Shown here piece by piece: positions 2,924 through 33,422 of a stretch of DNA of 53,484 nucleotides. The notes under the pieces were generated by a model. The model worked only from the letters and a program-made list of their open reading frames with translations. It was not told the origin of the DNA and searched no databases. The number at the start of each line of letters is the position of its first letter. Within the stretch, counting starts at the first letter, position 1. The translations under genes and the position numbers were made by a program. Source of the stretch: Candidatus Eiseniibacteriota bacterium (lineage in GTDB: Bacteria; Eisenbacteria; RBG-16-71-46; JAGVPR01). Location of the stretch: positions 1 to 53,484 of the forward strand of contig JAGVPR010000320.1 of the NCBI GenBank assembly GCA_020052115.1, in the 5' to 3' direction.

Positions 2924-3838
2924 TTAGCCCCGACCTTCGTGCTTCAGAAACGTCCCCCGCTGGAGTTCCTCGAAGGCCAGCCGGAGTTCCTGCTGCGTGT
3001 TCATCACGATCGGGCCGTACCACGCGACGGGCTCCTCGAGCGGCTTCCCGGAGACGAGCAAGAAACGGATCCCCTGTTCCCCGGCCTCGACCGTGACCTC
3101 GTCGCCGCGGTCGAAGAGCACGAGCGAGCGATTATCCGCGAGCGCGGGAGGCTCCATGTCCCACCACCCCACGCCTTCCGTCGGCACCGCGAGAGGACCC
3201 GACGCGTTGCAGAACTTCCCGGAGCCCGCGAAGACGTACGCGAAGGCGTGGCGCGTCGTCTCGACCGGCAGCGTTCTCCGCTTGCCCGGCGGGACCGAGA
3301 CATCCAAGTAGATCGGATCGGCCGCAACTCCGTCCACCGGGCCGGCCGTCCCCCAGAACTTGCCGCAGACGACGCGAACCGCGGTTCCGTCGTCCTCGGT
3401 GACCTCGGGGATGTCCGGGGATTTCACTTCCTGGTAGCGGGGCGCCGTCATCTTGAGCGACGAGGGGAGGTTCGCCCAGAGCTGGAATCCGTGCATCCGG
3501 CCGTCGCGATCGCCCTTCGGCATCTCCTGATGGATGATCCCGCTCCCGGCCGTCATCCACTGGACGTCGCCCGCGCCGATGGTGCCCTGGTTCCCGATGC
3601 TGTCGCCGTGGTCCACGGTTCCGGCGAGGACATATGTGATCGTTTCGATTCCGCGGTGGGGGTGCCACGGGAATCCGGCGAGATAATCCTCCGGCCGGTC
3701 GTTGCGAAGGTCGTCGAGAAGAAGGAACGGATCGAAGTCGGTCGGGTTGTCGAATCCGAAGGCGCGGCGAAGGCGAACCCCCGCGCCCTCCAGGGCCGGC
3801 TTGGCCTTGATGAGCCGTTTGACGGGACGGATGGACAT
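2924..3838 (-). CDS. Pirin-family cupin protein
   Basis: Taken from the internal Met (MSIRPVKR...). Pirin signature FPWHPHRGIETITYVLAGTVDHGDS...QWMTAGSGIIHQE. The longer 360-aa ORF would overlap the upstream gene. Confidence 0.9.
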   Translation of the reverse strand: MSIRPVKRLIKAKPALEGAGVRLRRAFGFDNPTDFDPFLLLDDLRNDRPEDYLAGFPWHPHRGIETITYVLAGTVDHGDSIGNQGTIGAGDVQWMTAGSGIIHQEMPKGDRDGRMHGFQLWANLPSSLKMTAPRYQEVKSPDIPEVTEDDGTAVRVVCGKFWGTAGPVDGVAADPIYLDVSVPPGKRRTLPVETTRHAFAYVFAGSGKFCNASGPLAVPTEGVGWWDMEPPALADNRSLVLFDRGDEVTVEAGEQGIRFLLVSGKPLEEPVAWYGPIVMNTQQELRLAFEELQRGTFLKHEGRG

Positions 3839-9100: not shown

Positions 9101-10735
9101 CTACGCCTCCGCCGAACTGACCGCGGCCGCCTGCGGGACGCGGCTCGGCGCCGTCCTGGCATGAAGAACAGCCACCTCGGCGGCGGAGAACGGCGACGTC
9201 CGGCCGGCCGTCTCGGTTTCCCCGTGCGTCCGCAGGACGTACTCGTGGAAGTGCTTGTGGACCGTCATGTACGAGATGGCCACGATGAGCTTCTGCACCG
9301 ACGGGCGGTGCCGCATGACGCGCCACACCGTCTGCAGGAAGAACCGCCTCCTCGCATGATCCCGGGAGAGCAGGAAGTACCGGAAGATGCGCGCCGTCAT
9401 TCGTAGCTGCTTGCTCGAGAGTCTTCCCGCGGACCGGCGCGCGGACTCGGGAGAAGGCGCGAACGGTCGCAGGGAATGAACCAAACGCTCGCCGTAGTGG
9501 TCATACCGATACAGGGCGCGGATCATCCACCGGTAGCCGCGGAGCAGCTCCTCGCCGGTCATCTTCTTCGGCACGAAATTCAGGTCGGCGCTGCCGTGGA
9601 CCTGCGCCAGGCTCTCGTCATACTCCAGCAGACGGCCCTCGCGCTTGAGCCGCGCGTGCAGCGGCGTCTGCTCGATGGCGAAGAGCACCCCGGCCGTCGT
9701 GAAGGGAACCCCGGCCTCCTGCAGGAAGTCGAACATCTCCTGGAAGATCCCGATGTCGTCGTTGTCGAACCCGACGATCATCCCGGCGATGACCATCAGG
9801 TTGTACGACTGGACGAGGCGGATGTTCTCGAGGATCGAGCCGCGGATGTTCTGCGTCTTCTTCGTCTCGATGAGGCTTGCGGTGCTCGGAGACTCGATTC
9901 CGATGAAGACACTCTCGAAGTTGCTGTCGCGCAGGAGCTCGAGGATCTTCGGATGCTGGGCGACGTTGAGCGTGAGCTCGGCCGAGAACCGGATCGGGTA
10001 GCCGTTCCTCTCGCCGAAGTCCCTCAGCTCCGTGAGCAGTTTCTCGGCGTACTTCGGGCTCGCGATGAGGTTGGCGTCGGAGAAGGAGATGTACTGCCCT
10101 CCCAGCCGGCGCACCGTCTCGACTTCCCCCATCACCTGCTCGACCGACTTCGTGCGCGGCACGCGGCCGTCGGTGACGATGATGTCGCAGAATTCGCACT
10201 GGAACGGACAGCCACGGGTCGTCTGGACGTAGTAGTAGAGGTACCTCCCCACCGGGAGGAGGTCGTATCGTGGAATCGGCGAGTCGGTCAACTTCACCTT
10301 GCCGCGCTCCTGCTCGTACAGGGCGGCGGGCGCGTGCCCCGCTAGCAGGTCGCTGCAAAACCGCGGCCAGGTGTATTCAGCTTCTCCCACGAACAAGACA
10401 TCGGCGGCGCCCTCGAACCGATCGGGACAGAGGGTGGGATAGGGACCGCCGATCACCACGAGACGCCCCCGGCGCCGGAACTCGGCCGCGATCTCCAGCG
10501 AGCGGGCCCACTGGACGTTGAAGCACGAGATCGCCACGACGTCGCAGGCTGCGTCAAAATCTATCGGATCTATGTTCTCATCCAGGAGTGAAACTTCGAT
10601 TTCGGGCGGAGTGAGAGCGGCGATCGTCGCCAGACCGATCGGCGATTGCGCCGAGTCCACCCCGACGAGTTCGTGGATGCCATGGAAGTTCCACAGCGAG
10701 TCCGGGAAGCGCGGACAGACGAGAAGGATGTGCAT
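9101..10735 (-). CDS. B12-binding-domain radical SAM protein (class B, DUF4070-like C-terminal extension)
   Basis: Start at MHILLVCPRF, with GGAGG 4 nt upstream. N-terminal Rossmann-like B12 domain (VVAISCFN...VVIGGPYPT). Radical SAM cluster motif TTRGCPFQCEFCDI (CxxxCxxC). Confidence 0.85.
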   Translation of the reverse strand: MHILLVCPRFPDSLWNFHGIHELVGVDSAQSPIGLATIAALTPPEIEVSLLDENIDPIDFDAACDVVAISCFNVQWARSLEIAAEFRRRGRLVVIGGPYPTLCPDRFEGAADVLFVGEAEYTWPRFCSDLLAGHAPAALYEQERGKVKLTDSPIPRYDLLPVGRYLYYYVQTTRGCPFQCEFCDIIVTDGRVPRTKSVEQVMGEVETVRRLGGQYISFSDANLIASPKYAEKLLTELRDFGERNGYPIRFSAELTLNVAQHPKILELLRDSNFESVFIGIESPSTASLIETKKTQNIRGSILENIRLVQSYNLMVIAGMIVGFDNDDIGIFQEMFDFLQEAGVPFTTAGVLFAIEQTPLHARLKREGRLLEYDESLAQVHGSADLNFVPKKMTGEELLRGYRWMIRALYRYDHYGERLVHSLRPFAPSPESARRSAGRLSSKQLRMTARIFRYFLLSRDHARRRFFLQTVWRVMRHRPSVQKLIVAISYMTVHKHFHEYVLRTHGETETAGRTSPFSAAEVAVLHARTAPSRVPQAAAVSSAEA

Positions 10736-14444: not shown

Positions 14445-16112
14445 TCAAGAATCGGCGGGATCACCGTCGCGTGCCGTGCCACTCGCACGTACAGCGCCGT
14501 AGCGCTTGAGCTTCCGGTAGAGCGTCGCCGATCCAATGCCGAGCTGTTCGGCCGTCCGCGTCTGGTTGCCGCCGTTGAGATCGAGCACCGCCAGGATGTA
14601 CTCCTTCTCGATATCCTCGAGGGCCCTCACCGTGCCGGAGAGCGATGGGGCGGGCAACGCCTGCCGGACTTCCTCGGGCAGGTCGTCGAGATCCGTGCGG
14701 CTGACGCGGGCGAGCGCGACCGCGCGCTCCATGGCGTTCTGCAGCTCGCGCACGTTGCCCGGCCAGTTATGCCGCAGGAGCTGATCCGCGGCGCGCGGTG
14801 ACAGCCCGGAGATCGGTCGGTTGAGCCGTAGCGCCGCCTCGCCCAGCAGAACGCGGGCGAGCGGCAAGATGTCCTCTCTCCGATCCCTGAGCGCCGGTAC
14901 GTGCAGCTCGACGACATTCAGCCGGTAATACAGATCATTCCGGAAGCGGCCCGCGGCAATCTCCTCGGTGAGTTCGCGATTGGTCGCGGCGATGACCCGA
15001 ACATTGACGGGGCGGCTCTTGTTTTCGCCGACGCGGCGGATCTCGCGTTCTTGCAGGACCCGCAGGAGCTTCACCTGCATGCCGGGCGAGACCTCGCCGA
15101 CTTCGTCGAGCAGGAGCGTTCCTCTGTTCGCCGCCTCGAACAGGCCGGGACGATCGTTGACCGCTCCCGTGAACGATCCACGCACGTGGCCGAAAAGCTC
15201 GCTCTCGAGGAGGGTCTCGGGGATGGCGCCGCAGTTGACCGCGATGAACGGACCCGCCGCGCGGGGGGATTCATCGTGTATGAACCGCGCGATGCGCTCC
15301 TTGCCCGTCCCGCTTTCCCCCGTGATGAGCACCGTGGAATCCACCTTCGCGATCCGCCGCGCGAGATCGAGGAGGCGACGCATGGCGGGGCTCCGCGCGA
15401 CGATCCCGAGCGGGTCCTCGACATCGGGCGCCACTCGGGAGAGCACGCGCTTCTTCTTCCGAAGATTCTGCTCGGCTCGCTTGAGCGATTCGGTGACCCG
15501 GTGGAGCGAGGGCTCGAGCCAATCCTTGAGGTTTTCCGTGTGGAAGAAGCGGAGTTCGTCGGCGCGATCGTCTCCCCACTCTTCGCGAGTCCGACCGAGG
15601 AGATGGCAGACGGGGTCGCCCCTTCCAATGCACTGCTCCTCGAGGACGTAGATCTCCTTGTTCACGGCGCGACTCAGATAGCCGCTGGTGAGACCGCAGA
15701 TCGTCCAGCACACGGGGGTGTCGCTGCGCCCGAGGTGGGCGATGTGCTGCTCCGCCTCGTAGGAGGCGCCGAGCGTCAAGCCCTCCTTCGTCAGCGATCC
15801 GGCCGTGGCGGGGTCGAGGCGGTACATTCCCTCGAGCATATGGATGCGCCCGCACGCATGGTGCCAGTCGTCGTCATTCTCCCATTGAAACAGGCCCTGC
15901 ATCGCCTCGGCCACACGCCAGCCGTGGACGAAGCCGAACCGCGTGAGCACGGCCCGAGCCGCGGTCAGGCCGAACTGCTCGATCAGCTCCTTTCGCAGGT
16001 TCCCCTTCGCCGTCGCATCAATGATGAGTGCGCGCTCGCCGGCGAAACGGATCATGCCGTCCTCTGAATTGAACTCGACCAGCTCCTTGATGTTCAGGTC
16101 TTGGACACGCAT
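14445..16112 (-). CDS. Sigma-54-dependent transcriptional activator, XylR/DmpR type (XylR_N + V4R sensor, AAA+, Fis-type HTH)
   Basis: The N-terminus GMIRFAGERALIIDA...FGFVHGW...CWTICGLTSGYLS...GDPVCHLLG is V4R-like. Walker A is GESGTGKE, with the GAFTGA variant GSFTGA. C-terminal HTH NQTRTAEQLGIGSATLYRKLKRYG. Confidence 0.9.
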   Translation of the reverse strand: MRVQDLNIKELVEFNSEDGMIRFAGERALIIDATAKGNLRKELIEQFGLTAARAVLTRFGFVHGWRVAEAMQGLFQWENDDDWHHACGRIHMLEGMYRLDPATAGSLTKEGLTLGASYEAEQHIAHLGRSDTPVCWTICGLTSGYLSRAVNKEIYVLEEQCIGRGDPVCHLLGRTREEWGDDRADELRFFHTENLKDWLEPSLHRVTESLKRAEQNLRKKKRVLSRVAPDVEDPLGIVARSPAMRRLLDLARRIAKVDSTVLITGESGTGKERIARFIHDESPRAAGPFIAVNCGAIPETLLESELFGHVRGSFTGAVNDRPGLFEAANRGTLLLDEVGEVSPGMQVKLLRVLQEREIRRVGENKSRPVNVRVIAATNRELTEEIAAGRFRNDLYYRLNVVELHVPALRDRREDILPLARVLLGEAALRLNRPISGLSPRAADQLLRHNWPGNVRELQNAMERAVALARVSRTDLDDLPEEVRQALPAPSLSGTVRALEDIEKEYILAVLDLNGGNQTRTAEQLGIGSATLYRKLKRYGAVRASGTARDGDPADS

Positions 16113-16129
16113 GACACCCTCCTTCGTAC

Positions 16130-16146
16130 TGATCGATACTAGATCA
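16130..16146. promoter_or_regulatory. AT-rich imperfect palindrome TGATCgatactaGATCA, candidate activator binding site / divergent promoter element
   Basis: 5-bp perfect arms in an otherwise GC-rich intergenic region, ~75-90 nt upstream of the -24/-12 element. Confidence 0.2.
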
Positions 16147-16218
16147 TTCTGATGGGATCCTCAAGGGCCCCCGCGGGCGGGCACGTGGCGCTGCAGGCAC
16201 TTACGCGACGGCGCGAAC

Positions 16219-16234
16219 CGGCACACGTATTGCG
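16219..16234 (+). promoter_or_regulatory. Sigma-54 (-24/-12) promoter
   Basis: CGGCACacgtaTTGCg compared with the consensus TGGCAC-N5-TTGC; the GG-N10-GC spacing is exact (GG 16220-21, GC 16232-33). It is intergenic, divergent from the sigma-54 activator, and ~50 nt upstream of the AAGGAG-N6-GTG start at 16283. Confidence 0.7.
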
Positions 16235-16282
16235 GGACACTCCTCCGAGGCGACATGGACACAGCTTCGAAAGGAGACGCTT

Positions 16283-16552
16283 GTGGAAGCGGACGTGGGG
16301 AAAATGGAGGCGCAGATCGAGGTTTGGGGCGCGAAGATAAACGGGCTCGCCGCCGCGGCCGCGAAGGCCGGCGTCGGAGCCAGGATCGACCTCCACTTGC
16401 ACATTGACGATTTGAAGGTGAAGCGCGCGGTTGCACTGGCGAAGTTCGACGAGTTCAAGACGGCGGAAGCCGCGAAGCGGGCGAGCCTCAAGACCGGCCT
16501 CGAGCACGCATGGAGCGAACTCGAGGCGGCATTCAGAGACCCGAGGCGATAG
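16283..16552 (+). CDS. Small cytoplasmic coiled-coil protein (89 aa), function unknown
   Basis: GTG start with AAGGAG 6 nt upstream. Heptad-like MEAQIEVWGAKINGLAAAAAKAG...IDDLKVKRAVALAKFDEFK...LEHAWSELEAAF. No signal peptide. Confidence 0.6.
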   Translation: MEADVGKMEAQIEVWGAKINGLAAAAAKAGVGARIDLHLHIDDLKVKRAVALAKFDEFKTAEAAKRASLKTGLEHAWSELEAAFRDPRR

Positions 16553-16664
16553 CCGCGAGAGCGAGGCGGATCGCCGAGTCCGTCAATTACCGAGGCGACG
16601 AGGATCATGACCCGACTTGAACCATGACTCGCTTGCCCCGATTCAAGGGAAGAGGAGATCCAAC

Positions 16665-17318
16665 ATGAAACGAGTTGCAGGCAGCATCAGCATCCTACTT
16701 CTGAGCGCCGTGGCCGTCCTGCCGGGCTGCATGAAAGACCGCGGAGACGGATCGGTTGCGCAGTCCCAACAAGATCGGAAGCCACGCTCGGAGACGATGG
16801 TCATCCCGGATGGGACGAACGTCGTCGCGTCGCTTGAGACGCGGCTCACCACGGACACGAACCGAAGCGGCGACCGGTTCGTCGCCAGAACGACGGAGCC
16901 CATTCTCGTCGGTGGCAAGACGGTCGTCCCGGCCGGAACGCAGATCCAGGGCGTGCTGCGCGACGTTCAGGCGTCCGGCCGCACGTCCGGGCGTGCCCGC
17001 ATGACGCTCGCGTACGAGAACATCGTGGACTCGGCCGGCAAGACCCACCCGATCTCCGCGGTACCACTCACGCTTCAGGCAGCCTCCGGCACGCGCGGCG
17101 ATGTTGAGAAGATCGCGGCGGGTGGAATCCTCGGCGGGATCATCGGCGCGGTCGCCGGTGGGACGAAGGGCGCCGCGATCGGGGCAGGCGCTGGAGCAGG
17201 CGCCGGGACGATCATCATGCTCGCGACCAAGGGAGACGAGGTCGAACTCGACCCCGGCCAGAGACTGAACGTCAGGATGACGTCGCCTACGAGCATTGAG
17301 GTCTTCGCTCAGAGATGA
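16665..17318 (+). CDS. Lipoprotein with a C-terminal glycine-zipper segment
   Basis: MKRVAGSISILLLSAVAVLPGC lipobox. Glycine zipper GGILGGIIGAVAGGTKGAAIGAGAGAGAGTII near the C-terminus. GAGGAG RBS. Confidence 0.75.
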   Translation: MKRVAGSISILLLSAVAVLPGCMKDRGDGSVAQSQQDRKPRSETMVIPDGTNVVASLETRLTTDTNRSGDRFVARTTEPILVGGKTVVPAGTQIQGVLRDVQASGRTSGRARMTLAYENIVDSAGKTHPISAVPLTLQAASGTRGDVEKIAAGGILGGIIGAVAGGTKGAAIGAGAGAGAGTIIMLATKGDEVELDPGQRLNVRMTSPTSIEVFAQR

Positions 17319-17395
17319 TCGATGACTCTTCGCGGGGCGGCAATGCGAGATCCGCTTGTCGCTACCGCGGTCACAATCTCAAGGAGGGTAGTCAA

Positions 17396-17893
17396 ATGCG
17401 AAACACTCGAGGGGTTCTTCTAGCAGCGGCGCTGACCATGGCGCTCGTTCCCGTGCTGGCCCTGGCGGGCCCTGCCGACATCGGGTATCGCGGATGGGGA
17501 CCGCGGCTCGGATTCTCGTCCGGACCGGATCAGTTCATCTTCGGCGCCCAGCTCGACTTCGGGAACTTCGGCCAGCATGTCCGCTTCCAGCCCAATATCG
17601 AGATGGGCCTGGGGGACCACCGGACGACCGGAGCGATCAACCTGGACACCACCTATCGCTTCAGCTCGAACTGGGACGTCTGGTCGCCCTATCTGGGCGG
17701 CGGGCTGGGTCTGAGCATGTCCGGGTCGGACAACGGCCTGGCGCACGACAGCGACACGGGAATCGGTGCGAGCGCGATCGGTGGGATCGAGAAGGGGCTC
17801 TCCAACGGCGACCGATTCTTCACCGAGGTGAAGCTCGGTGCCGGCGACGCGCCGGACCTGAAGCTCATGATTGGTTGGACCTTCTATCACTAG
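17396..17893 (+). CDS. Small outer-membrane beta-barrel protein
   Basis: Signal peptide MRNTRGVLLAAALTMALVPVLALA. Alternating amphipathic strands. C-terminal strand DLKLMIGWTFYH. AAGGAGGG RBS. Confidence 0.7.
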   Translation: MRNTRGVLLAAALTMALVPVLALAGPADIGYRGWGPRLGFSSGPDQFIFGAQLDFGNFGQHVRFQPNIEMGLGDHRTTGAINLDTTYRFSSNWDVWSPYLGGGLGLSMSGSDNGLAHDSDTGIGASAIGGIEKGLSNGDRFFTEVKLGAGDAPDLKLMIGWTFYH

Positions 17894-17916
17894 GAGGTCG
17901 CGAAAGGACGGATGAA

Positions 17917-18144
17917 ATGAAGCTCGTCGGAATGGTGCTCGTGGTGCTTGGGATCGTCGCGTTGATCTACGGCGGGATCGACTACAACCGAGACAAGACG
18001 GTCCTCCAGATGGGCTCGATGAGCGCTACGGTCACGGAACACAAGACAGTTGCGATTCCGGCCATCCTCGGGGTGGCCTCGCTGGTCGGCGGCCTTGCGC
18101 TCATCTTCGTGCCCAGGCGCCGCCTCCTGCTCCAGAAGGGGTAG
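17917..18144 (+). CDS. Small two-TM membrane protein (75 aa)
   Basis: MKLVGMVLVVLGIVALIYGG ... AIPAILGVASLVGGLALIFVPRRR, i.e. two hydrophobic helices. Lies 23 nt after the preceding gene. Confidence 0.55.
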   Translation: MKLVGMVLVVLGIVALIYGGIDYNRDKTVLQMGSMSATVTEHKTVAIPAILGVASLVGGLALIFVPRRRLLLQKG

Positions 18145-18198
18145 AGATTCCCCTGGACCTCACGTATCCGACCACACGCTCATTCAGGAGGATTCGGT

Positions 18199-18819
18199 AT
18201 GCGAAAGACCTTCAGCGTTCTCTCTGCGGCTCTCTGTCTGTGCCTGGCACTGCCTGCGGCGGCCCAGAACATCGGCATCTTGCAGTCCGCCGAAACGAAC
18301 AACCAGGGCACTGTGAAGCTCATGGTGGCTCCTCTGATGTCGTTCGGTAGCAACGATGCGGACGACGAATTCGGGATCATGGCCCGCGTGGGATACGGAT
18401 TCACCGGCCGCTTCGACGCCGAAGCCAAGGTCGGCCTGTCCGAGAACGGCTCCTTCTTTGGTGCGGACGGAGAACTGTGGCTTCTGAAAGACGCCGGCCT
18501 GGACATCTCGTTGACGGGGGGCCTCCACTGGCTGTTCGGGGACGGTGAGAGCCTCGACACCATGGGATTCGAGATCACGCCGCTCGTGAGCGGGCACGTG
18601 ACCGAGAGTCTGGAGTTGTTCGGCGCCCTGGATGTCGCATTCGAGTCCGTACAGGATGCGCCGGCGGGCGTGGACGACTCGTACACGAGAGTCCACCTTG
18701 TCCCCGGAATCGAGTACCGGCTGTCCGACGCTGCCGATCTCGTCGCCGAGTTCGGTGTCGGGCTCAATGACAACTCGTCCGAGTACGTGAGCGCCGGCAT
18801 CGCCTTCTACTTCCGGTGA
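18199..18819 (+). CDS. Outer-membrane beta-barrel protein
   Basis: Signal peptide MRKTFSVLSAALCLCLALPAAAQ. Beta-strand periodicity. Terminal SAGIAFYFR. AGGAGG RBS. Confidence 0.7.
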   Translation: MRKTFSVLSAALCLCLALPAAAQNIGILQSAETNNQGTVKLMVAPLMSFGSNDADDEFGIMARVGYGFTGRFDAEAKVGLSENGSFFGADGELWLLKDAGLDISLTGGLHWLFGDGESLDTMGFEITPLVSGHVTESLELFGALDVAFESVQDAPAGVDDSYTRVHLVPGIEYRLSDAADLVAEFGVGLNDNSSEYVSAGIAFYFR

Positions 18820-18889
18820 CCCGGACTGATATCCGAGTGCTCGTCTTGGTCGGCAGTCGCTCACATACGCAGTCTAGGAGGACCACCTC

Positions 18890-19579
18890 GTGATAGGAAA
18901 CGGTAATGCCCATCCCAGGCAGAGAATCTTGAGCACCACTCGCGCCTTGCTCGTGTTGCTCCTGACCGCCGTCGCCGGCCTCACGGTTGCCTCGGCGGCA
19001 TGCGGGTCGGAGAGACCCGGCAGCTACCTGGCGATCAAGGGCGGCATTTATTCGCCCAGCGCGTCATTCAGCCTCGAGAACATCGACGTCGAGACCACCT
19101 TCGACGGTGATACCAGGACCGGAGTCGACGGAGAGCTCGCGATCGGACACTACTTCCTTCCCACGCTCGCTCTTGAACTCGGAGTCGGGTACTTCAAAGG
19201 CACGGGGTCCCTTGCGGAAACCCCCGTGCGCGAAGTGGATTTCGATGTCATCCCGATCATCGTGTCCGCGAAGGCTCTCATCCCGGCCGGGTCGGTTGAT
19301 CCGTACGGCGAGCTGGGGATCGGCGCTTACTTCTCGGAGTTCAACGTAGACGGCAATGCCAACAGCTTCGATGGCTCCACGACCTTCGGGCTTCATGCCG
19401 GAGCGGGGTTGAACGTCAACTTCGCCCAGAGGTTTTTCCTCGGGTTGGAGGGGAGATACGTCTGGGCCAACCCGTCGTTCGGCGACCAGACGATCAAGCT
19501 GAACGACACCGAGTACGCCCTGAACGGGTTCAATCTCAACGGATTCACCACGACGCTCGCCCTGGGCCTCGGATTCTGA
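18890..19579 (+). CDS. Outer-membrane beta-barrel protein (OmpW/OmpA-barrel-like)
   Basis: GTG start with AGGAGG upstream. N-terminal hydrophobic signal. IKGGIYSP...ELGVGYF...GLHAGAGLNVNF...FTTTLALGLGF, with a terminal Phe. Confidence 0.7.
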   Translation: MIGNGNAHPRQRILSTTRALLVLLLTAVAGLTVASAACGSERPGSYLAIKGGIYSPSASFSLENIDVETTFDGDTRTGVDGELAIGHYFLPTLALELGVGYFKGTGSLAETPVREVDFDVIPIIVSAKALIPAGSVDPYGELGIGAYFSEFNVDGNANSFDGSTTFGLHAGAGLNVNFAQRFFLGLEGRYVWANPSFGDQTIKLNDTEYALNGFNLNGFTTTLALGLGF

Positions 19580-19609
19580 CGCCCAGATCGAGACAAGGAG
19601 GGTTCGAAC

Positions 19610-20176
19610 ATGAAGTCCATGGTTTCTGTCGCTCTTGCCACCGTATTCTTCACGTTTCCTCTCGCTGCTGAGGCGGGAGCCGTCGTTCAGGGAACACAGG
19701 AATCGGTGACGCTGGTGGGATCATCTGCGCCCGGGACGACCTTCGAGTGGCTCTTCGATACGACCCCGCTCCCTACCGTCCGGGGCAAACCCCTAGAGCG
19801 CCTGACGGGAGTCGGCTTCGCTTCGGAGTCCATAGTGACTTCTCGCGAGACGAAGGGCGCAATGATCATGATGATGGAGAAGCTCCGTCCCATGGGCGAT
19901 CTCAAGGAGATCCGCCTTCTCGCGCTCGGTTTCACGAGTTCGTACGCCGAGGGAACGGGCGCACAGCAGCTGGGGCTGCAGCGGGCAGAGGTTGTCCGTG
20001 ATTTTCTCGTGACTCTTGGTTTGAGCGGGGACAACATCCAGGTCGCGAGCTTCGGCGACGACTACGCAACCGCTCGACCCTGGGAGTTGTACAAGCAGAC
20101 CTACGAGCAGGGCGTGGCCATCTGGTTGTTGGGGACGAGTCAGTCTCCAATGACCGCGGTGCTGCTCAACGATTAG
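19610..20176 (+). CDS. Secreted protein with a degenerate OmpA C-terminal-like domain
   Basis: Signal peptide MKSMVSVALATVFFTFPLAAEA. LALGFTSS...LGLQRAEVVRDFLVTLGLSGDNIQVASFGDDYA resembles GHTD...LSxxRA...G-x-G-x of OmpA_C, but the TD motif is missing. Confidence 0.5.
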   Translation: MKSMVSVALATVFFTFPLAAEAGAVVQGTQESVTLVGSSAPGTTFEWLFDTTPLPTVRGKPLERLTGVGFASESIVTSRETKGAMIMMMEKLRPMGDLKEIRLLALGFTSSYAEGTGAQQLGLQRAEVVRDFLVTLGLSGDNIQVASFGDDYATARPWELYKQTYEQGVAIWLLGTSQSPMTAVLLND

Positions 20177-20263: not shown

Positions 20264-20680
20264 TTACCGCGCACCACTCCTCTTGTGGACGGCCCGGCCG
20301 ATAGCTTCCAGCAGCGCCTGGTCGCCGAACGGCTTGCGGAGGATCTCCGTCACGACGCCGGCCGAGCCGCTCTCTTCCTCGGAGTGCGCCGTGATGAACA
20401 CGACCGGGATGTGCCGCCCCATCGCGGTAAGGCGGTCGCGCAGGTCGGGCCCCGACATGCCCGGCATGCGGATGTCCAGAACGAGGCAGTCCGGCTCTCG
20501 TTTCAGCGAAGCCATGAGAAAGCTCTCGCCGGACGCATAGGTATCCACGTCCATTCGAGCAGACCGGAGCAGGCGCCGCAGCGCCTTGCAGACGGAAGGG
20601 TCGTCGTCAATCACGGCAATGAAGGTCACGACCTGACTATTGACCCGGACCGCGGCCTCCGATATGGGACCTTGGTCCAA
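20264..20680 (-). CDS. Single-domain response regulator (receiver only)
   Basis: IAVIDDDPSVCKALRRLL...DCLVLDIRMPGMSGPDL...VVFITAH...LRKPF. Confidence 0.85.
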   Translation of the reverse strand: MDQGPISEAAVRVNSQVVTFIAVIDDDPSVCKALRRLLRSARMDVDTYASGESFLMASLKREPDCLVLDIRMPGMSGPDLRDRLTAMGRHIPVVFITAHSEEESGSAGVVTEILRKPFGDQALLEAIGRAVHKRSGAR

Positions 20681-20711
20681 AGCGCGGCGGGCGGTGTGCG
20701 GGATCGGCGCT

Positions 20712-21332
20712 TCAAGTCAACCGGATGCCGGCCTTTTCGCACAGCCGAACCAGATCGGCGACGGACTGGACCCGCATCTTGTGCATGACCCGGCCGCGGT
20801 GCACCTTGACGGTCTTCTCGGATGTGCCGAGCGTCGCGGCGATCTGCTTGTTGAGCTCCCCTGCCAGCACGTGAAGAAGGACTTCGTGTTCGCGCGGCGT
20901 CAGCGTGGAAAGACGCCGCTTGGCCTCGCGGGCCGCGGCGCGTCCGCACGACTCCTCCCCCGCCCTCTTCAGCGCCCGGGAGATGGCCTCGAGCAGGTCC
21001 TTTTCGTGGAAGGGCTTGGACAGGAAGTCCGTCGCTCCCGCTTTCATGGCGCGCACGCTCGTCGGGATATCGCCGTGGCCGGTGATGAAGACGATCGGCA
21101 ATGGACTGTCCGCTTCCGAGAGCGCCTGCTGCAACTCGAGGCCGTTCAGATCGGGCATCTGAACGTCGAGCACCAGGCATCCGACCTCGTCTTGCAGCCC
21201 GCGCTGCAGAAACTCCCGTGCCGAAGCGAAGACCTCGACCCGGTATCCCGCCGCCTTCAGAAGCCGGCCGAGGCTCTTGCGTACAGACAGCTCGTCATCA
21301 ACGACGAATACAGTCCCCTCTGTGCCGCTCAT
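20712..21332 (-). CDS. FixJ/LuxR-type response regulator (receiver + LuxR HTH)
   Basis: VFVVDDELSVRKSL...GCLVLDVQMPDLNGLEL...IVFITGHGDIPTSVRAMKAGATDFLSKPF, then LTPREHEVLLHVLAGELNKQIAATLGTSEKTVKVHRGRVMHKM. Confidence 0.92.
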   Translation of the reverse strand: MSGTEGTVFVVDDELSVRKSLGRLLKAAGYRVEVFASAREFLQRGLQDEVGCLVLDVQMPDLNGLELQQALSEADSPLPIVFITGHGDIPTSVRAMKAGATDFLSKPFHEKDLLEAISRALKRAGEESCGRAAAREAKRRLSTLTPREHEVLLHVLAGELNKQIAATLGTSEKTVKVHRGRVMHKMRVQSVADLVRLCEKAGIRLT

Positions 21333-23278
21333 GGCTTCGCCTTCTCCAGCGCCGGAAGCGTGAACCAGAAGGTGGCGCCCCGGTCGGCATTGTTCGTGAG
21401 TCCGATACGACCGCCGTGCGCCTGGATGATGGAGCGGCAGATGGCGAGCCCGAGACCGATTCCATGAGGCTTCGTCGTGACGAACGGCTCGAAGACCTGT
21501 TCGAGCTTGTCCACCGGGACGCCGACTCCGCCGTCCTGGACCGAGACCCTGACGAAACGCGCGTCCGCGGCTGCTGTGCGAACCACGACCCTACGATTCC
21601 CGCCGGACATGTCTTTCATCGCGTCCAGAGCGTTCACGATGAGGTTGAGGAGGACCTGCTGAAGCTGGACCCGGTCACCATGCACCAGGGGCGGATTGGA
21701 GACGAGGTCCAGAGCGAGCGAGGCGTCTTGCAGGATCATTTCTCCGCGGACGAGTCCCGCGACCTCATCCACCAGCTCGTTGACGTCCACGTCCACGGGA
21801 TTGGATTCGCCCTTCCGGAGCAGGGAGCGCATGCGGCGGATGACCTCGCCGGCGCGCTGGTCGTCGGCCACGATGTCGGCGAGGATCTCACGGAATTCCT
21901 CCAGACCGGCGCCGCCGGCGGCGAGCAGGCGCTGAGCCGCCTGCGCATTGCTCAGGATCGCGGCCAGCGGTTGGTTTATCTCGTGCGCGAGCGACGCCGT
22001 CAGCTCGCCCATGGTGGCCACGCGCGTCATGTGCGCCAGTTCCTCCCGCCGCAGGCGGGCCTCGAGTTCGGCGCGCCGCCGGCGCCGGCTCTGCAAGACC
22101 AGGGCGAGGATGAGGCCGGATTGCAGCAGGAAGAGGGTTCCCGTGGTGATCACCAGAAGGAGATGCTGCCGCCAGAACGACCGTGGCCGAAAGCGAATGA
22201 GGCTCCCGGACGGCAACTGGCTCGCACGCACGCCCCAGCGCCGCATCTGGCGCCAGTCGAGAAGGGGCGCCGGCGCGAGCTTCTGAACAGGCGGCAGCGC
22301 ACCGGCGTTCTCCCGGGAGAGAACGCGCATCGCCAGCGCCGCCGTGGCGCGGCCGATCGCATCCATGGGGGTGGCGACGGTCCCGAGCAGCCCGTGCCCG
22401 ACGAGAGGATCGGGGCCGCCATAGATGGGTGCGGAGGACGATGCGGACATGCGCTGCATCGTCTCGTGCGGCGAGGCGGCGCCGCCGTCCAGCCCGGAGA
22501 GGTCGAACGCCAGACTGTTCGCCGGGAGGCGCGACAGCTCTTGCAGAAGCTCCAGCAGAGGCTCCTTCGCGAGCCGGTGAAACGTCACCTGGGATTCCGG
22601 AGGCCCCGGGGGCTCCCACCCCGCGCCGCCGAGCCCCGCCGAGTCCGAGATCACGAAGACCTGCCGGGTCTTGGGGTGCAGCCGCAGCGCCAGGCGCAGC
22701 GTCGCGGCCCCATCGAAGCCCGACCGCACACCGGTGACGAGCCGTGCCGATTCGCCCTGCGAAGACGTATCGGTGCCGCAGTCGGCGAAGACGACCGGGA
22801 CTTCCGGGAAGAGTTGCGGGCGATGGCGGAGGCAGAAACCGAGGCTCGCGGGGCCGATCGCGACGATGACGTCGGGCTGCCGGCTGCCGTACTTCTCACC
22901 CAGGAAACCGAGCATGCGCTCGTCGTGACGGACGGGGAATCGGATCTCGTCCAAGAACTCGCTGCAGTATTCGACCGGCCCGCCGGGACCGGAGGCGATG
23001 GCTTCGCGGAAGCTCTCATCGAAGAGGACATTGGTGGGAAGCAGCGAATTGCCGGAGCAGAGCACGAGCACGCGGGGAGGTGCATGCGAAGCGAGAAGCG
23101 GCGCGGAAGCCGCCGGGTCTGGTCGGGGACCTCCGCTGCAGACCCCGGTGAAGGCCCCCGAGACCGCCACCAGCAGGAGGTTGAGCGCCCCCCCACGAGC
23201 GCCGGACCCGACTCGAGCCCCCATCCGCAAGAAGGAGCGGCTGGATCCAGTTCGCAACACTGCCGCCATCATGTTCAC
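21329..23278 (-). CDS. Membrane sensor histidine kinase with a periplasmic substrate-binding-protein-like sensor domain
   Basis: The N-terminal ~300 aa periplasmic region (VLVLCSGNSLLPTNV...) is followed by the TM helix LLLVITTGTLFLLQSGLILALVL. H-box TASLAHEINQPLAAI. HATPase GIGLGLAICRSI. ATGA overlap with the FixJ-type gene. Confidence 0.88.
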   Translation of the reverse strand: MNMMAAVLRTGSSRSFLRMGARVGSGARGGALNLLLVAVSGAFTGVCSGGPRPDPAASAPLLASHAPPRVLVLCSGNSLLPTNVLFDESFREAIASGPGGPVEYCSEFLDEIRFPVRHDERMLGFLGEKYGSRQPDVIVAIGPASLGFCLRHRPQLFPEVPVVFADCGTDTSSQGESARLVTGVRSGFDGAATLRLALRLHPKTRQVFVISDSAGLGGAGWEPPGPPESQVTFHRLAKEPLLELLQELSRLPANSLAFDLSGLDGGAASPHETMQRMSASSSAPIYGGPDPLVGHGLLGTVATPMDAIGRATAALAMRVLSRENAGALPPVQKLAPAPLLDWRQMRRWGVRASQLPSGSLIRFRPRSFWRQHLLLVITTGTLFLLQSGLILALVLQSRRRRRAELEARLRREELAHMTRVATMGELTASLAHEINQPLAAILSNAQAAQRLLAAGGAGLEEFREILADIVADDQRAGEVIRRMRSLLRKGESNPVDVDVNELVDEVAGLVRGEMILQDASLALDLVSNPPLVHGDRVQLQQVLLNLIVNALDAMKDMSGGNRRVVVRTAAADARFVRVSVQDGGVGVPVDKLEQVFEPFVTTKPHGIGLGLAICRSIIQAHGGRIGLTNNADRGATFWFTLPALEKAKP

Positions 23279-23491: not shown

Positions 23492-23797
23492 CTAGGACTC
23501 GCGCGTTCCCGGGTCTCCGTCGCCCTGCGGCTCCGGCCTGGACTTCTCCGCCTGCGACTTCGCCACCCGGACGATCAACCGCTTCCCGTCCAACTCGGTG
23601 GAATTGAGCCGCGAGATCGCGTCTTCCGCCTCGGAGATGGTGCTCATCCGGACGAAGCCGAAACCGCGGGACAGCCCCGTGAGCTTGTCAATCGAGATGC
23701 GCGCCGACTCCACCGTCCCGCAAGGCGCGAACATCGTGTTCAGATCCTGCTCGTTCTTCGCATGAGACAGCCTGCCGACGAAGAGTCTCGTGCCCAT
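23492..23797 (-). CDS. RRM-type RNA-binding protein (RNP-1/RNP-2)
   Basis: Start at MGTRLFVGRLS (RNP-2), RNP-1 RGFGFVRM. AAGGAGGA RBS. About 100 aa. The longer track ORF adds 8 unsupported codons. Confidence 0.9.
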   Translation of the reverse strand: MGTRLFVGRLSHAKNEQDLNTMFAPCGTVESARISIDKLTGLSRGFGFVRMSTISEAEDAISRLNSTELDGKRLIVRVAKSQAEKSRPEPQGDGDPGTRES

Positions 23798-24180: not shown

Positions 24181-24474
24181 CTAGTACTCGCGCCGGCCGC
24201 GGTCGCCGTACGACGTCGTGCGCGAAACCTGCGGCTTCGCCAGATCAACGATCAGCGTGCGGCCTTCCATCTCGGTCGAATTCAGCGCCGTGATCGCGCT
24301 CTGAGCCTCCGACGCCGAGTTCATCTCGACGAAGCCGAACCCGCGCGACTGACCCGTCGTCTTGTCGGTGATGATCTTGGCCGACTCGACCGCGCCGTAA
24401 GGAACGAACATCGCGCTCAACTCGGCATCGGTGGTGGAATACGGCAGGCCGCCTACGTACATCTTCGAACCCAT
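24181..24474 (-). CDS. RRM-type RNA-binding protein (RNP-1/RNP-2)
   Basis: MGSKMYVGGLPYS (RNP-2), RGFGFVEM (RNP-1), and an R/G/Y-rich tail SYGDRGRREY. AAGGAGGAG RBS. Confidence 0.92.
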   Translation of the reverse strand: MGSKMYVGGLPYSTTDAELSAMFVPYGAVESAKIITDKTTGQSRGFGFVEMNSASEAQSAITALNSTEMEGRTLIVDLAKPQVSRTTSYGDRGRREY

Positions 24475-30326: not shown

Positions 30327-33300
30327 CTACGACCTCTCTGCGCCCACGGGCCCTTCCTCCGCTCCCCGTTGCATCCTCCCTCGGATGCTGTAGAGCACTG
30401 GAAGGACGAGAAGCGTCAGGATCGTCGATGAGACCAATCCGCCGATGACGACTGTGGCAAGGGGCTTCTGCACCTCGGCGCCTATTCCGGTGTTCAGGGC
30501 CATGGGGACGAACCCCAGGCTCGCCACGAGAGCCGTCATCAGCACCGGCCGAAGCCGCCTCTCCGCGGCTTGCTCGATCGCCTCCCCCATGGACTTGTTC
30601 CGGGCCAGCGAGTCGCGGATGGTAGACACCAGCACGAGTCCGTTCAAGACAGCCACACCGAAGAGCGCGACGAAACCAACAGCCGCCGAAATGCTGAATG
30701 GCATTCCCCTCAACCAAAGGGCCAGAACGCCTCCCACCGCAGCGAACGGAACCCCCGTGAAAACGGTGGCGGCGTCCATCACGTTTCGGAACGACAGGTA
30801 GAGGAGCGCCAGGATCAAGGCGAGCGCCAGCGGCACGACGATCATGAGTCGTGCGCGAGCACGCTCCAGGTGCTCGAACTGTCCGCCGAAGCGAACGTAG
30901 TAACCCGGAGGAAGAGGGACCTGGTCGTCCAGCGCTTTCCTCAGCTCAGAGACAAAGCTCCCGACGTCGCGCCCTCGCACATTCGCCTGAATGACCGCCC
31001 GCCGCTTGCCCCACTCCCGGTTGATTGTGGACGGCCCCTCTGTCATGCGGATTGTGGTCAGCCGTTCCAGCGGGACGCGGTCACCGTTTGTCGCCGTGAC
31101 CAGAATCCGGCCCACAGCGCCGGCGTCAATCCGGTATCGGCTGTCGAGGGTTATGGCGATGGGAAAACGCCGTTCGCCCTCCTGCAGGACTCCAACGTCA
31201 CGAGTCCCGAGCGCGGCGATTGCATCAAGCACCTCGCCGGCCGGAATCCCGTGCCGCGCGATGGCGTCGCGATCAACCTCGATCTCCAGCACGGGTTGCC
31301 CGGTGAGCTGCTCCACGAACACGTCCGCCGCACCGGGGGTCCGCTTCATCACCGCCTCGATTTCGCGAGCCCTGGCCTTGAGCACCTCGAAATCATCCCC
31401 GAACAGCTTTACGCCGACGTCCGCGCGAACGCCGGCGATCATCTCGTTCACGCGCATCTCGATCGGTTGGGTGAAGACCATCCGCATACCGGGAAGGCCG
31501 GAGAGCTTCTCCTGCATCGCGCTCACGAGATCGTCCTGGGTCTTTGCCCGTCTCCAGCGGCTCCTGTCTTTCAGCGTGATGAAGATGTCCGAGAGTTCCA
31601 GGCCCATCGGATCGGTGGCCACTTCCGCCGTCCCCGTGCGGGTCCAGACGCGCTCGATTTCGTCCGGAAACGCCTTCTCCAGCGTCCGTTCGATCTGAAG
31701 CCCGTATCGCACGGACTCGTCAATGGAAACGCCGGCAAGTCGGATCGTGTTGATCACGAGCGCGCCTTCCCTGAGCCGAGGAACGAACTCGGATCCTAGG
31801 CGTGTCGCAAGGTATCCGGCTCCGACCACCAGCAAAGCGGCTGCCATGACGATCAGTTTGGGCCGTGACATGGCCCTTCGAAGGGCCGGTTGGTAGAGGC
31901 GCTTGGCGCTCGCGACAACGAAGTTCTCCTTCTCCGACATGCGTCGCGGGAGGAGCACGGCGCTCAAGGCAGGCATGAGGGTGAGCGACAGGATGAGAGA
32001 CCCGAACAGGGCGAAGATGACCGTCAGGGCCATCGGATGGAACAGCTTTCCCTCCACGCCCTCGAGAGCCAGGATCGGCAGATAGACGATCATGATGATC
32101 AGTTCGCCGAACATCGTCGGCCGTCGGACCTCGATGGCGGCTTCCCTGACGATCTCTGCTTGAGACCGGGTCGTTCGATCTTCGGAGAGACGCCGGGCCG
32201 AGTTCTCGACCATGATGACCGAGCTGTCCACGATCAGTCCGAAGTCGATCGCGCCGAGGCTCATCAGGGTGCCGGCGATTCCGGCACGGACCATGAGGTC
32301 AAATGCGAACAGCATGGAAAGCGGGATCGCGGAAGCCACGATGAGTCCTGCCCGCAGATTCCCCATGAAGATGAAGAGCACGGCAATGACAAGCACCGCT
32401 CCCTCAAAGAGATTCGTCTTTACCGTGTGCAGCACATGGTCAACCAGCTCCGTGCGGTTGTACACGGTGGCGACGTCAACTCCCTGAGGGAGGCTTCTCT
32501 TGATCTCTTCGAGGCGGAGCTGGAGCCCACGGGCGACGTCATGGCTGTTCTCGCCCATCAGCATGAAGCCCAGACCCAGGACCACCTCCCCCGTTCCGTC
32601 GGCGGTCACGGCCCCGCGCCGAATCTCCCGCCCGTCCACCACCGTCGCGACGTCGCGGACGCGGGTCGGGACGCCGTCCCGAGAAGAGACAATGATGTCC
32701 TCCACGTCGGAGAGCGAGGTGACGATGCCGATCCCCTGGATCAGGGCAGACTGGCCGGCCTGATCGAGCGACCCGCCGCCGACGTTGGCGTTGTTCTGTT
32801 CGAGCGCCGCGGCGAGATCAGAGAGTGTCAACCCATGCTTGGCGAGGTTCACGGGATCAACGACGACGTGGATCTGTCGTTCGTCTCCTCCCCATGTGTT
32901 GACTTCCGCTACTCCCGGAACGGACCGGAGTTGAGGTTTGATGATCCAGTCTTGCACCGTTCGGAGTTCGCTCAGGCTCTTTCCCTTCCCTGTCACGAGG
33001 TAGTGGAAAACCTCACCCAATCCTGTGGCGACGGGTCCGAGCTGAGGGCGGTCGATCCCCTGGGGCAGTTCCACTGATTGGAGACGCTCCATGACCACCT
33101 GTCGCCCAAGATAGATGCCGGTCCCCTCCTCGAAGATGACCGTCACCTGAGATAGGCCGAACTTCGACAGAGAGCGAACCTCGTGGAGCTTCGGAAGGCC
33201 CGAGATCGCCTGCTCGATGGGAAAGGTGATCTGCCGCTCGATCTCGAGCGGAGAGAGGGCCGGAGCCACGGTGTTGATCTGCACCTGAATCGGCGTGGTA

Positions 33301-33422
33301 TCGGGGAAGGCATCAATGGGAAGGTGGAATAGCGCCGCACTTCCGACCGCGGCCAAGATGATCCCCCCGGCGATGACGGCGTACCGCCGGCGGATCGACC
33401 AGCTTATGATCCAGTTCAGCAT
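30327..33422 (-). CDS. czcA: Heavy-metal-efflux RND pump, CzcA-like (divalent-cation type TM4 motif)
   Basis: 1031 aa with 12-TM RND architecture. TM4 reads AIDFGLIVDSSVIMVEN, which matches the DFG-D-x-x-VEN pattern of HME-RND proteins. Confidence 0.88.
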   Translation of the reverse strand: MLNWIISWSIRRRYAVIAGGIILAAVGSAALFHLPIDAFPDTTPIQVQINTVAPALSPLEIERQITFPIEQAISGLPKLHEVRSLSKFGLSQVTVIFEEGTGIYLGRQVVMERLQSVELPQGIDRPQLGPVATGLGEVFHYLVTGKGKSLSELRTVQDWIIKPQLRSVPGVAEVNTWGGDERQIHVVVDPVNLAKHGLTLSDLAAALEQNNANVGGGSLDQAGQSALIQGIGIVTSLSDVEDIIVSSRDGVPTRVRDVATVVDGREIRRGAVTADGTGEVVLGLGFMLMGENSHDVARGLQLRLEEIKRSLPQGVDVATVYNRTELVDHVLHTVKTNLFEGAVLVIAVLFIFMGNLRAGLIVASAIPLSMLFAFDLMVRAGIAGTLMSLGAIDFGLIVDSSVIMVENSARRLSEDRTTRSQAEIVREAAIEVRRPTMFGELIIMIVYLPILALEGVEGKLFHPMALTVIFALFGSLILSLTLMPALSAVLLPRRMSEKENFVVASAKRLYQPALRRAMSRPKLIVMAAALLVVGAGYLATRLGSEFVPRLREGALVINTIRLAGVSIDESVRYGLQIERTLEKAFPDEIERVWTRTGTAEVATDPMGLELSDIFITLKDRSRWRRAKTQDDLVSAMQEKLSGLPGMRMVFTQPIEMRVNEMIAGVRADVGVKLFGDDFEVLKARAREIEAVMKRTPGAADVFVEQLTGQPVLEIEVDRDAIARHGIPAGEVLDAIAALGTRDVGVLQEGERRFPIAITLDSRYRIDAGAVGRILVTATNGDRVPLERLTTIRMTEGPSTINREWGKRRAVIQANVRGRDVGSFVSELRKALDDQVPLPPGYYVRFGGQFEHLERARARLMIVVPLALALILALLYLSFRNVMDAATVFTGVPFAAVGGVLALWLRGMPFSISAAVGFVALFGVAVLNGLVLVSTIRDSLARNKSMGEAIEQAAERRLRPVLMTALVASLGFVPMALNTGIGAEVQKPLATVVIGGLVSSTILTLLVLPVLYSIRGRMQRGAEEGPVGAERS

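Follow-up and report, generated by a model that had tools for sequence, protein, structure and literature searches.

A predicted sigma-54 module pairing a XylR_N/V4R-type activator with seven small, mostly envelope-type genes in an uncultured Eisenbacteria-type bacterium

XylR/DmpR-type activators are textbook sensors of pollutants and common biosensor parts. What is controlled by such an activator, and what might it sense, when the genes that face it encode small envelope proteins and no catabolic enzyme? This question is raised by a stretch of 53,484 nucleotides from Candidatus Eiseniibacteriota bacterium (assembly GCA_020052115.1, contig JAGVPR010000320.1, positions 1 to 53,484; hereafter the window), in which the gene of a bEBP (bacterial enhancer-binding protein) with a XylR_N/V4R sensor lies divergent from a -24/-12 promoter and from seven genes on the opposite strand, numbered here g1 to g7. 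An initial annotation of the locus, made by reading the sequence, had suggested a ligand-inducible programme of outer-membrane remodelling or envelope stress. In our estimation the module is probably, with moderate confidence, a stress circuit that depends on sigma-54 and a one-component activator, in an uncultured bacterium of the Eisenbacteria/Krumholzibacteriota type. Direct support from sequence comparison comes from the domain content of the activator, the conservation of the promoter and of a putative activator-binding block, the linkage of the genes, and sensor changes specific to one clade of activators.

By every feature that can be examined in its sequence, the activator is a complete bEBP, predicted to be capable of open-complex formation, and the initial annotation stood on this point. 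Its Pfam matches are XylR_N (E 3e-27) and V4R (E 3e-9), the two sensor families (PF06505 and PF02830) both scoring above their cut-offs, followed by the AAA+ domain Sigma54_activat (PF00158; E 6e-72), AAA_lid_14 and HTH_8 (E 1e-15). Walker A (GESGTGK), Walker B (LLLDE) and the sigma-54-contact loop (GSFTGA) are intact; this variant of the GAFTGA-type loop occurs in 27 of 120 orthologues, and 90 carry GAFTGA. To these features are added a cognate -24/-12 promoter and an upstream block, both located in the 170-nt divergent spacer.

Of the 11 positions specified in TGGCAC-N5-TTGCW, 9 are present in the promoter, which sits 107 nt from the start codon of the activator and faces the seven genes. 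It is the sole exact GGCAC-N5-TTGC within the window, where shuffled sequences give an expectation of 0.35 per 53 kb, or about 0.001 per 170-nt spacer. Transcription would start near 16244-16246. For comparison, one genome per species was scanned for relatives of the activator, which yielded 78 loci, and in all of them genes were called with a codon-usage model and their products clustered. When elements with at least 8 of the 11 consensus positions were counted, a -24/-12 element was found 94-141 nt from the activator ATG in 30 of 42 loci, against a background of 4% in random 75-nt windows (binomial P about 3e-32). The near-consensus promoter proposed in the initial annotation was thus corroborated both by its uniqueness in the window and by its kept position.

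The putative activator-binding block, or upstream activating sequence (UAS), contains a pair of TTTTGAT(C/G)G-like half sites spaced by about 21 bp, namely the palindrome TGATC-N7-GATCA at 16130-16146 and the dyad TGA-N8-TCA at 16150-16163. Across 36 loci this 40-bp block has the consensus TTTTGATcGA..cTaC.TCatT.TG.AtGGg......CaAg, and half sites occur in it at 5.8 per kb versus 0.22 per kb outside it, a 26-fold enrichment. The half sites resemble the TTGA-rich binding sites of XylR. As the UAS abuts or overlaps the activator's own Shine-Dalgarno leader, autoregulation of the activator is likely. Between the UAS and the -24 region, a further conserved block may be an IHF-type bending site: an (A)AGCA(C/G)TTACG block recurs in relatives at constant spacing from the -24 GG, and in 8 of 32 loci it shares at least 8 of the 9 positions of the IHF consensus WATCAANNNNTTR, versus 1% of shuffles. 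The copy in the window has a degenerate 5' half and lies 11 nt farther from the -24 region than in most relatives, that is, about one helical turn.

Linkage between the activator and the genes facing it was counted in the 37 species whose activator is 65% identical or more and for which enough upstream DNA was available. In 27 of them at least two of g1, g2 and g3 were located divergently upstream of the activator; by gene, the divergent strand carried the sll1863-family gene (g1) in 25 species, the glycine-zipper lipoprotein (g2) in 25 and the beta-barrel OMP-A (g3) in 26, and g4 was present in 16. A chance adjacency of activator and genes was excluded by the conserved gene order and promoter position in many species. 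The activator has more than 120 relatives among protein clusters at 72-93% identity. The close loci, for the most part recovered from soil, groundwater and sludge, belong to metagenome-assembled genomes of Candidatus Eisenbacteria, Krumholzibacteriota and Latescibacterota, or to ones named simply 'bacterium'; the distant loci (about 46-62% identity) belong to Myxococcota, Planctomycetota and Acidobacteriota.

The usual order in relatives is sll1863, lipoprotein, OMP-A, DUF5670 (49 aa), OMP-B (g5) and DUF3185 (g4), after which comes either a secreted protein of 195 aa or a DUF948-like protein together with YtxH. L082, the closest relative, whose activator is 93% identical, carries g1, g2, g3, DUF5670, g4, g5 and g6, and shares with the window the same flank of GH130 and glycosyltransferase genes. 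The g4-then-g5 order is found in these two loci, and g5-then-g4 in most relatives. In L082 the DUF5670 gene (1329-1478) stands between OMP-A and DUF3185, at a place where just 23 nt are left in the window (17893-17917), so that it was recently lost there. Similarly, g6 (OMP-C) is joined to the operon in the window and L082 only, and is elsewhere found alone, with a -24/-12 element of its own in 8 loci, so that OMP-C was appended in the window's lineage. The last gene, g7, is rarely linked to the activator in relatives, and in Krumholzibacteria-type loci g1 is situated outside the divergent operon, elsewhere. The gene-neighbourhood comparison proposed along with the initial annotation therefore gave a divided answer: the module is co-conserved, whereas the full seven-gene set is lineage-specific, the recurrent core being, by these comparisons, g1, g2, g3 and DUF5670, then g5 and g4.

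The sensor itself shows how this clade departs from the aromatic sensors. It comprises about residues 1-185, and over its first 190 residues the activator can be aligned with the sensory domains of PoxR, MopR and DmpR (CapR), for which structures are solved, with E values of 1e-24 to 1e-20. The zinc ligands C135, E158, C161 and C169 correspond to C155, E178, C181 and C189 of MopR and are invariant in relatives, and the activator thus displays the XylR_N plus V4R arrangement with a Cys/Glu/Cys/Cys zinc site that marks the subfamily. The pocket His is kept as His91. In DmpR (H100/W128) and MopR (H106/W134) a His and a Trp are the effector-contact residues, the Trp having been termed strictly conserved and positioning phenol together with the His (PMC7264223). 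At the position of this phenol-contact Trp, the activator and nearly all members of its clade (at least 66% identity) have a Leu (Leu114), and three more pocket positions are altered, from F to H84, from Y to L141 and from Y to V156. An extra cysteine, Cys139, separated by one helical turn from C135, a zinc ligand, is present in the activator and in all but a few clade members. The sensor domain is unusually well kept, with a mean column identity of 82% across many species.

The activators with the Leu114/Cys139 changes are the very clade that is linked to the envelope operon. Orthologues at 46-61% identity keep the Trp and adjoin sigma-54 promoters heading genes for YceI, pirin, a major facilitator superfamily (MFS) transporter or a P450. 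From this partition it appears that input and output changed together on the branch leading to the clade, and the targets of the out-group suggest a hydrophobic or toxic compound as the ancestral signal. The module would thus represent a large, tightly conserved clade of sensors with an altered pocket, whose output has been moved away from catabolism and towards proteins of the envelope and of stress, and an example of a one-component sigma-54 switch in which both ends have changed.

The features of the locus are collected in Table 1. Each of the seven open reading frames is preceded, at 6-10 nt, by a Shine-Dalgarno sequence of the GGAG/AGGAGG type, as initially annotated. Between the seven genes no convincing intrinsic terminator or internal sigma-70 promoter was found, the counts being equal to the shuffle level. 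Pfam and NCBIfam profile searches revealed no enzyme domain in the seven products, confirming the gene set as enzyme-free. The catabolic operon expected downstream of an XylR/DmpR/MopR-type activator is consequently missing here, and relatives are alike in this respect.

Table 1. Coordinates of the activator gene, the cis elements and the seven downstream genes in the window
Feature	Position	Strand	Description
Activator (bEBP)	14445-16112	(-)	555 aa; XylR_N/V4R zinc sensor, linker, AAA+ Sigma54_activat, HTH_8
Putative activator-binding block (UAS)	16127-16165		GTACTGATCGATACTAGATCATTCTGATGGGATCCTCAAG
Conserved block between UAS and -24, possible IHF-type bending site	16194-16207	(+)	CAGGCACTTACGCG
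Sigma-54 (-24/-12) promoter	16219-16234	(+)	CGGCACACGTATTGCG; GG at 16220-16221, GC at 16232-16233
g1, sll1863-family general stress protein	16283-16552	(+)	89 aa; NF052504
Conserved block after g1 stop	16563-16584	(+)	GAGGCGGATCGCCGAGTCCGTC; in g1-g2 spacer 16553-16664
g2, lipoprotein with VirB10-like barrel and glycine zipper	16665-17318	(+)	217 aa; lipobox Cys22
g3 (OMP-A), small outer-membrane beta-barrel	17396-17893	(+)	165 aa; signal peptide; ends GWTFYH
g4, two-transmembrane DUF3185-like protein	17917-18144	(+)	75 aa; weak DUF3185 match
g5 (OMP-B), outer-membrane beta-barrel	18199-18819	(+)	206 aa; ends IAFYFR
g6 (OMP-C), outer-membrane beta-barrel	18890-19579	(+)	229 aa; ends LALGLGF
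g7, secreted OmpA-C-like protein	19610-20176	(+)	188 aa; degenerate TD motif

The g1 protein matched the NCBIfam profile with E 9e-19 and 67.4 bits, the cut-off being 35; its residues 4-86 correspond to profile positions 5-87 of 93. Its GTG start is backed by homologues beginning MEADVGK, and a protein search returned at least six matches. The family is named after sll1863 of Synechocystis, the top salt-induced and a multi-stress-induced general stress protein of this cyanobacterium, with unknown function (PMC8670252). No signal peptide was found in g1, and AlphaFold2 (AF2) predicts a three-helix bundle (pLDDT 84), for which a search of the PDB gave generic helical-bundle matches only. The coiled-coil envelope protein originally proposed for this gene was thus right as to its helical nature, and had to be replaced by an sll1863-family protein lacking an export signal.

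The spacer that follows g1 is about 100-130 nt long in nearly all relatives, and an alignment of 18 spacers revealed in it a conserved GAGGCGGATCGCCGA(A/G)TCCG(C/T)C block with hairpin potential; as an mRNA hairpin, this block could set the g1:g2 expression ratio. A structured RNA found no support as a candidate here, with RNAalifold yielding no consensus structure and single-sequence folding giving unremarkable z-scores. A variable GC hairpin also precedes the Shine-Dalgarno sequence of g2 in this spacer.

The glycine-zipper lipoprotein recognised in the initial annotation was confirmed for g2, with Cys22 as its lipobox cysteine, and the fold search added a further domain. A beta-barrel similar to the C-terminal domain of VirB10/TrbI (about residues 40-142 and 182-217) is predicted with an AF2 pLDDT of about 90, and the glycine zipper (143-181) is inserted into it. 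The best Foldseek matches in the PDB are the C-terminal domains of TrwE/VirB10, ComB10 and CagY, with E values of 4e-5 to 1e-3. The barrel of VirB10 is interrupted by a helical antenna, and the glycine-zipper insertion of g2 is comparable. The match to Gly-zipper_YMGG is weak (21 bits versus a cut-off of 28.9). The family is widespread, with 1798 homologues at E 1e-5 or better, some of which have a precomputed PF03743 assignment, and Cys22 is invariant among homologues; no type IV secretion genes were found near g2. Some JGI records label g2 homologues as 'SlyB'. This identity found no support: a PDB profile search gave no significant match, and the fold search led to VirB10-type domains, with SlyB absent.

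The three small outer-membrane beta-barrels, with the C-termini initially read, were upheld: g3, g5 and g6 all combine a signal peptide and OMP_b-brl similarity with an aromatic-rich C-terminal strand. The g3 family profile matches the 8-stranded barrel NspA (E 1e-5), and OMP_b-brl is matched by 10 of 11 family members. Matches to OMP_b-brl exceed the Pfam cut-off for both g5 (E 5e-7, and all seven family members examined) and g6 (E 1e-13). A Phenol_MetA_deg channel, which would have tied g5 to aromatics, was rejected, this match being below threshold and seen in only 1 of 7 family members. The two-transmembrane protein g4 is DUF3185-like, by a weak match (E 4e-4), and its orthologues in one relative (L001) are called DUF3185. 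In OmpA-C-like domains an Asp and an Arg bind the peptidoglycan stem peptide. The g7 protein is just over the threshold of Pfam OmpA (29.2 bits versus a cut-off of 27.2) and has Ser in place of this Asp, in keeping with the degenerate OmpA-C-like protein first described.

On the other side of the activator, relatives harbour OMP-C and a 133-aa membrane protein (TM133) paired with a C39-peptidase-like protein of roughly 650 aa; a DUF4398 gene coupled to an OmpA-family gene is often present as well. The OMP-C and TM133 operons of relatives have their own -24/-12 elements, upstream of which UAS half sites are enriched 6-fold. Genes for YtxH, DUF948-like, DUF5670, DnaJ and a 118-aa protein are located in or next to the operons of relatives. 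A single regulated module free of enzymes, as first envisaged, thus holds for the window and is conserved, but the neighbourhood regulon of relatives is not strictly enzyme-free, given the C39-like peptidase and the nearby M48 and DnaJ genes. In the window, TM133, C39-peptidase-like, YtxH, DUF4398 and DUF5670 genes are absent, and no second pair of UAS and -24/-12 elements was found in its 53 kb. In the C39-like partner of TM133 the C39-like peptidase domain is N-terminal, and the C-terminal region is long; this pair occurs at L001 (9681-12170) and L003 (9672-12021), and also in L008, L009, L012, L014 and others.

Co-transcription, the mechanism of activation, the signal and the physiological role are what we infer from these elements, and the circuit would operate as follows. 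The activator would be produced from its own divergent gene and would bind as dimers to the UAS beside that gene. By analogy with DmpR, MopR and XylR, the zinc-containing V4R domain would keep the AAA+ domain inactive until a signal is received; the activator would then oligomerise, and a DNA bend at the IHF-like block would allow contact with the sigma-54 RNA polymerase at the promoter, which would be opened at the expense of ATP. A single mRNA starting near 16245 would carry g1 to g7, and the products would alter or protect the envelope, with no metabolic role. Their predicted sites are the cytoplasm for g1, the outer membrane for the lipoprotein g2 and the barrels g3, g5 and g6, the inner membrane for g4 and the periplasm for g7. 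The signal would most likely be a small molecule that is hydrophobic or acts on membranes, or else a redox or electrophile challenge perceived at the zinc/Cys site, and not phenol.

Several observations weigh against the proposed circuit. The divergent operon is absent in 10 of the 37 species with a similar activator, so that the link between activator and operon is not obligatory. The co-transcription of the seven genes is deduced solely from strand, spacing and the absence of terminators, and the centre of the UAS, about 60-90 bp upstream of the -24 region, is nearer than in classical XylR/DmpR promoters. The g7 protein is devoid of the key peptidoglycan-binding Asp, showing FTSS versus YTDS in an alignment with the MotY C-terminal domain, although the Arg of RAEVV is kept. 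The view is limited to 53 kb, such that catabolic or other targets may exist elsewhere in the genome, and rpoN lies outside the window. Finally, an sll1863 knock-out in Synechocystis had no salt phenotype (PMC8670252), and the 'stress protein' label of g1 therefore tells little on its function.

The alternative that survives best, to which we assign some probability while considering it unlikely, is a regulon for general stress or dormancy, related to osmotic conditions, desiccation or the stationary phase, in which the activator would sense an internal metabolite or a protein partner. The envelope proteins would be only part of a broad protective output, which would stand in for RpoS or SigB in these phyla. 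The family of g1, induced by many stresses in Synechocystis, would fit such a regulon, as would the YtxH, DUF948-like, DnaJ and 118-aa protein genes found with the operons of relatives; the high conservation of the sensor also suits an internal signal of universal kind better than a xenobiotic, which would vary. However, the characterised XylR_N/V4R activators all bind small external molecules, the YceI, pirin, MFS and P450 genes of the nearest out-group point to foreign hydrophobic compounds, and stress induction in the present organism would be an assumption.

A bolder proposal, speculative and of low probability in our view, is that the Leu114/Cys139 clade contains no ligand receptor at all but a zinc-thiolate switch (Cys135-x3-Cys139, beside the Cys3Glu zinc site) that responds to oxidants, to electrophiles or to lipids derived from the membrane. 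In Eisenbacteria and Krumholzibacteriota it would in that case be the master regulator of envelope stress, as RpoE, Cpx or RpoS are in Proteobacteria, with an output of g2-type lipoproteins and dedicated small outer-membrane barrels assembling into a protective structure of the outer membrane.

The envelope operon might also be a side target of an activator whose main task, as for its XylR and DmpR relatives, lies with an operon for catabolism or detoxification at another place in the genome. This is favoured by the view of only 53 kb, by the absence of the operon from the ten species mentioned above and by related activators heading P450, pirin or MFS genes; we nevertheless consider it quite improbable, because the UAS adjoins the activator gene, the promoter position is kept in most species, envelope proteins are likewise encoded behind the other sigma-54 promoters found close to the activator in relatives, and the ligand-contact Trp of catabolic sensors is lost in the clade. 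A Psp-like membrane-stress system, in which g1 would inhibit the activator as PspA does until membrane damage titrates it, recalls the pspF-pspABCDE layout of a divergent activator, a small helical cytoplasmic first product and small membrane proteins, but is very improbable, since Pfam gave no PspA/IM30 match for g1 at E up to 0.1, g1 is predicted as a generic three-helix bundle, the activator has a full sensor domain, and g1 lies apart from the divergent operon in Krumholzibacteria-type loci.

When the probable stress circuit is set beside known systems, the closest switch is that of XylR, DmpR, MopR and PoxR. The order of domains (XylR_N, V4R, AAA+, HTH_8), the zinc ligands and the pocket His are shared, as is the divergent layout with a -24/-12 promoter, TGA-rich sites and an element resembling a bending site. 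The differences are Leu114 in place of Trp, the H84, L141 and V156 substitutions, the extra Cys139, the UAS nearer to the promoter and the lack of a catabolic enzyme. Without the effector-contact Trp and a catabolic target, the activator is not counted as a member of the aromatic-catabolic subfamily. With Psp, the module has in common a divergent sigma-54 activator, a small helical cytoplasmic first product and an enzyme-free output for envelope stress. PspF has no sensor domain. In contrast, the module has a ligand-type sensor and products that are mostly of the outer membrane, and homologues of PspA/IM30, PspB and PspC are absent from it, which sets it apart from Psp systems.

RpoS and SigB regulons include small proteins of the OsmB, YtxH and sll1863 types. 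The present products and those of relatives are similar to them, comprising glycine-zipper lipoproteins, YtxH, DUF948 and sll1863-family proteins; control differs, relying here on sigma-54 and a dedicated activator instead of an alternative factor of the sigma-70 family. By analogy, the module reads as XylR/DmpR-like at the level of the switch and as resembling Psp or RpoS/SigB responses at the level of output. A further parallel is PexR of Myxococcus xanthus, a one-component bEBP whose N-terminal metal centre senses H2O2 and which drives sigma-54 promoters of protective genes (PMC12754779). PexR differs in having a GAF domain and ahpC and katB as targets (PMC12754779), the module described here combining V4R, a Cys3Glu zinc site and an envelope output. 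Redox sensing by the V4R activator is, by this analogy, a hypothesis.

Sigma-54 has been described as a controller of the bacterial exterior, with regulons enriched for envelope-related functions (Francke et al. 2011, PMC3162934), a general finding into which the module fits. The literature was searched for a V4R-type one-component activator with small outer-membrane, lipoprotein and sll1863 genes, and no prior description was found among the papers covered. The initial claim that such a programme was undescribed was accordingly narrowed: the novelty is the sensor type and the gene set, while sigma-54 control of the exterior was already published. What the locus would offer is a well-defined, phylum-wide circuit in uncultured bacteria, which leaves current sigma-54 ideas in place, and a first way into the stress regulation of two candidate phyla that are known through metagenomes alone. 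It also joins the widespread sll1863, DUF5670, DUF3185, YtxH and VirB10-like glycine-zipper lipoprotein families in one predicted co-regulated set.

Some further arrangements were encountered around the activator in relatives. At a Krumholzibacteriia locus (L021, 5230-8304) the divergent operon is replaced by genes resembling a replication/primase module of a mobile element beside the activator. In some loci labelled Myxococcota (L038, 6289-7941 and 8212-9479; L050, 6299-6664) a second, paralogous V4R activator is encoded, and DUF4398 plus OmpA-family pairs stand behind sigma-54 promoters of their own. In L050 the GGCACTTACGCG block of the window recurs ahead of this second sigma-54 promoter. 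Beside distant activator orthologues in Myxococcota and Acidobacteriota, the first gene driven by sigma-54 is pirin; the window has a pirin gene at 2924-3838 (-), 11 kb from the activator, upstream of which no -24/-12 element was seen.

Convergent with the operon in the window is a two-component set (20264-23278, (-)) in which a histidine kinase of 649 aa is combined with a LuxR-type response regulator and a single-domain receiver; in relatives this set is not kept beside the activator. It is followed by two adjacent genes for small RNA-binding proteins of about 100 aa (23492-23797 and 24181-24474, both (-)), the second being RRM_1 and the first having been assigned through sequence similarity and family clustering. 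Unrelated to the module are the B12-binding radical SAM proteins at 9101-10735 (-) and 51623-53182 (+) and the AcrB-type RND pumps at 30327-33422 (-) and 37475-40564 (-).

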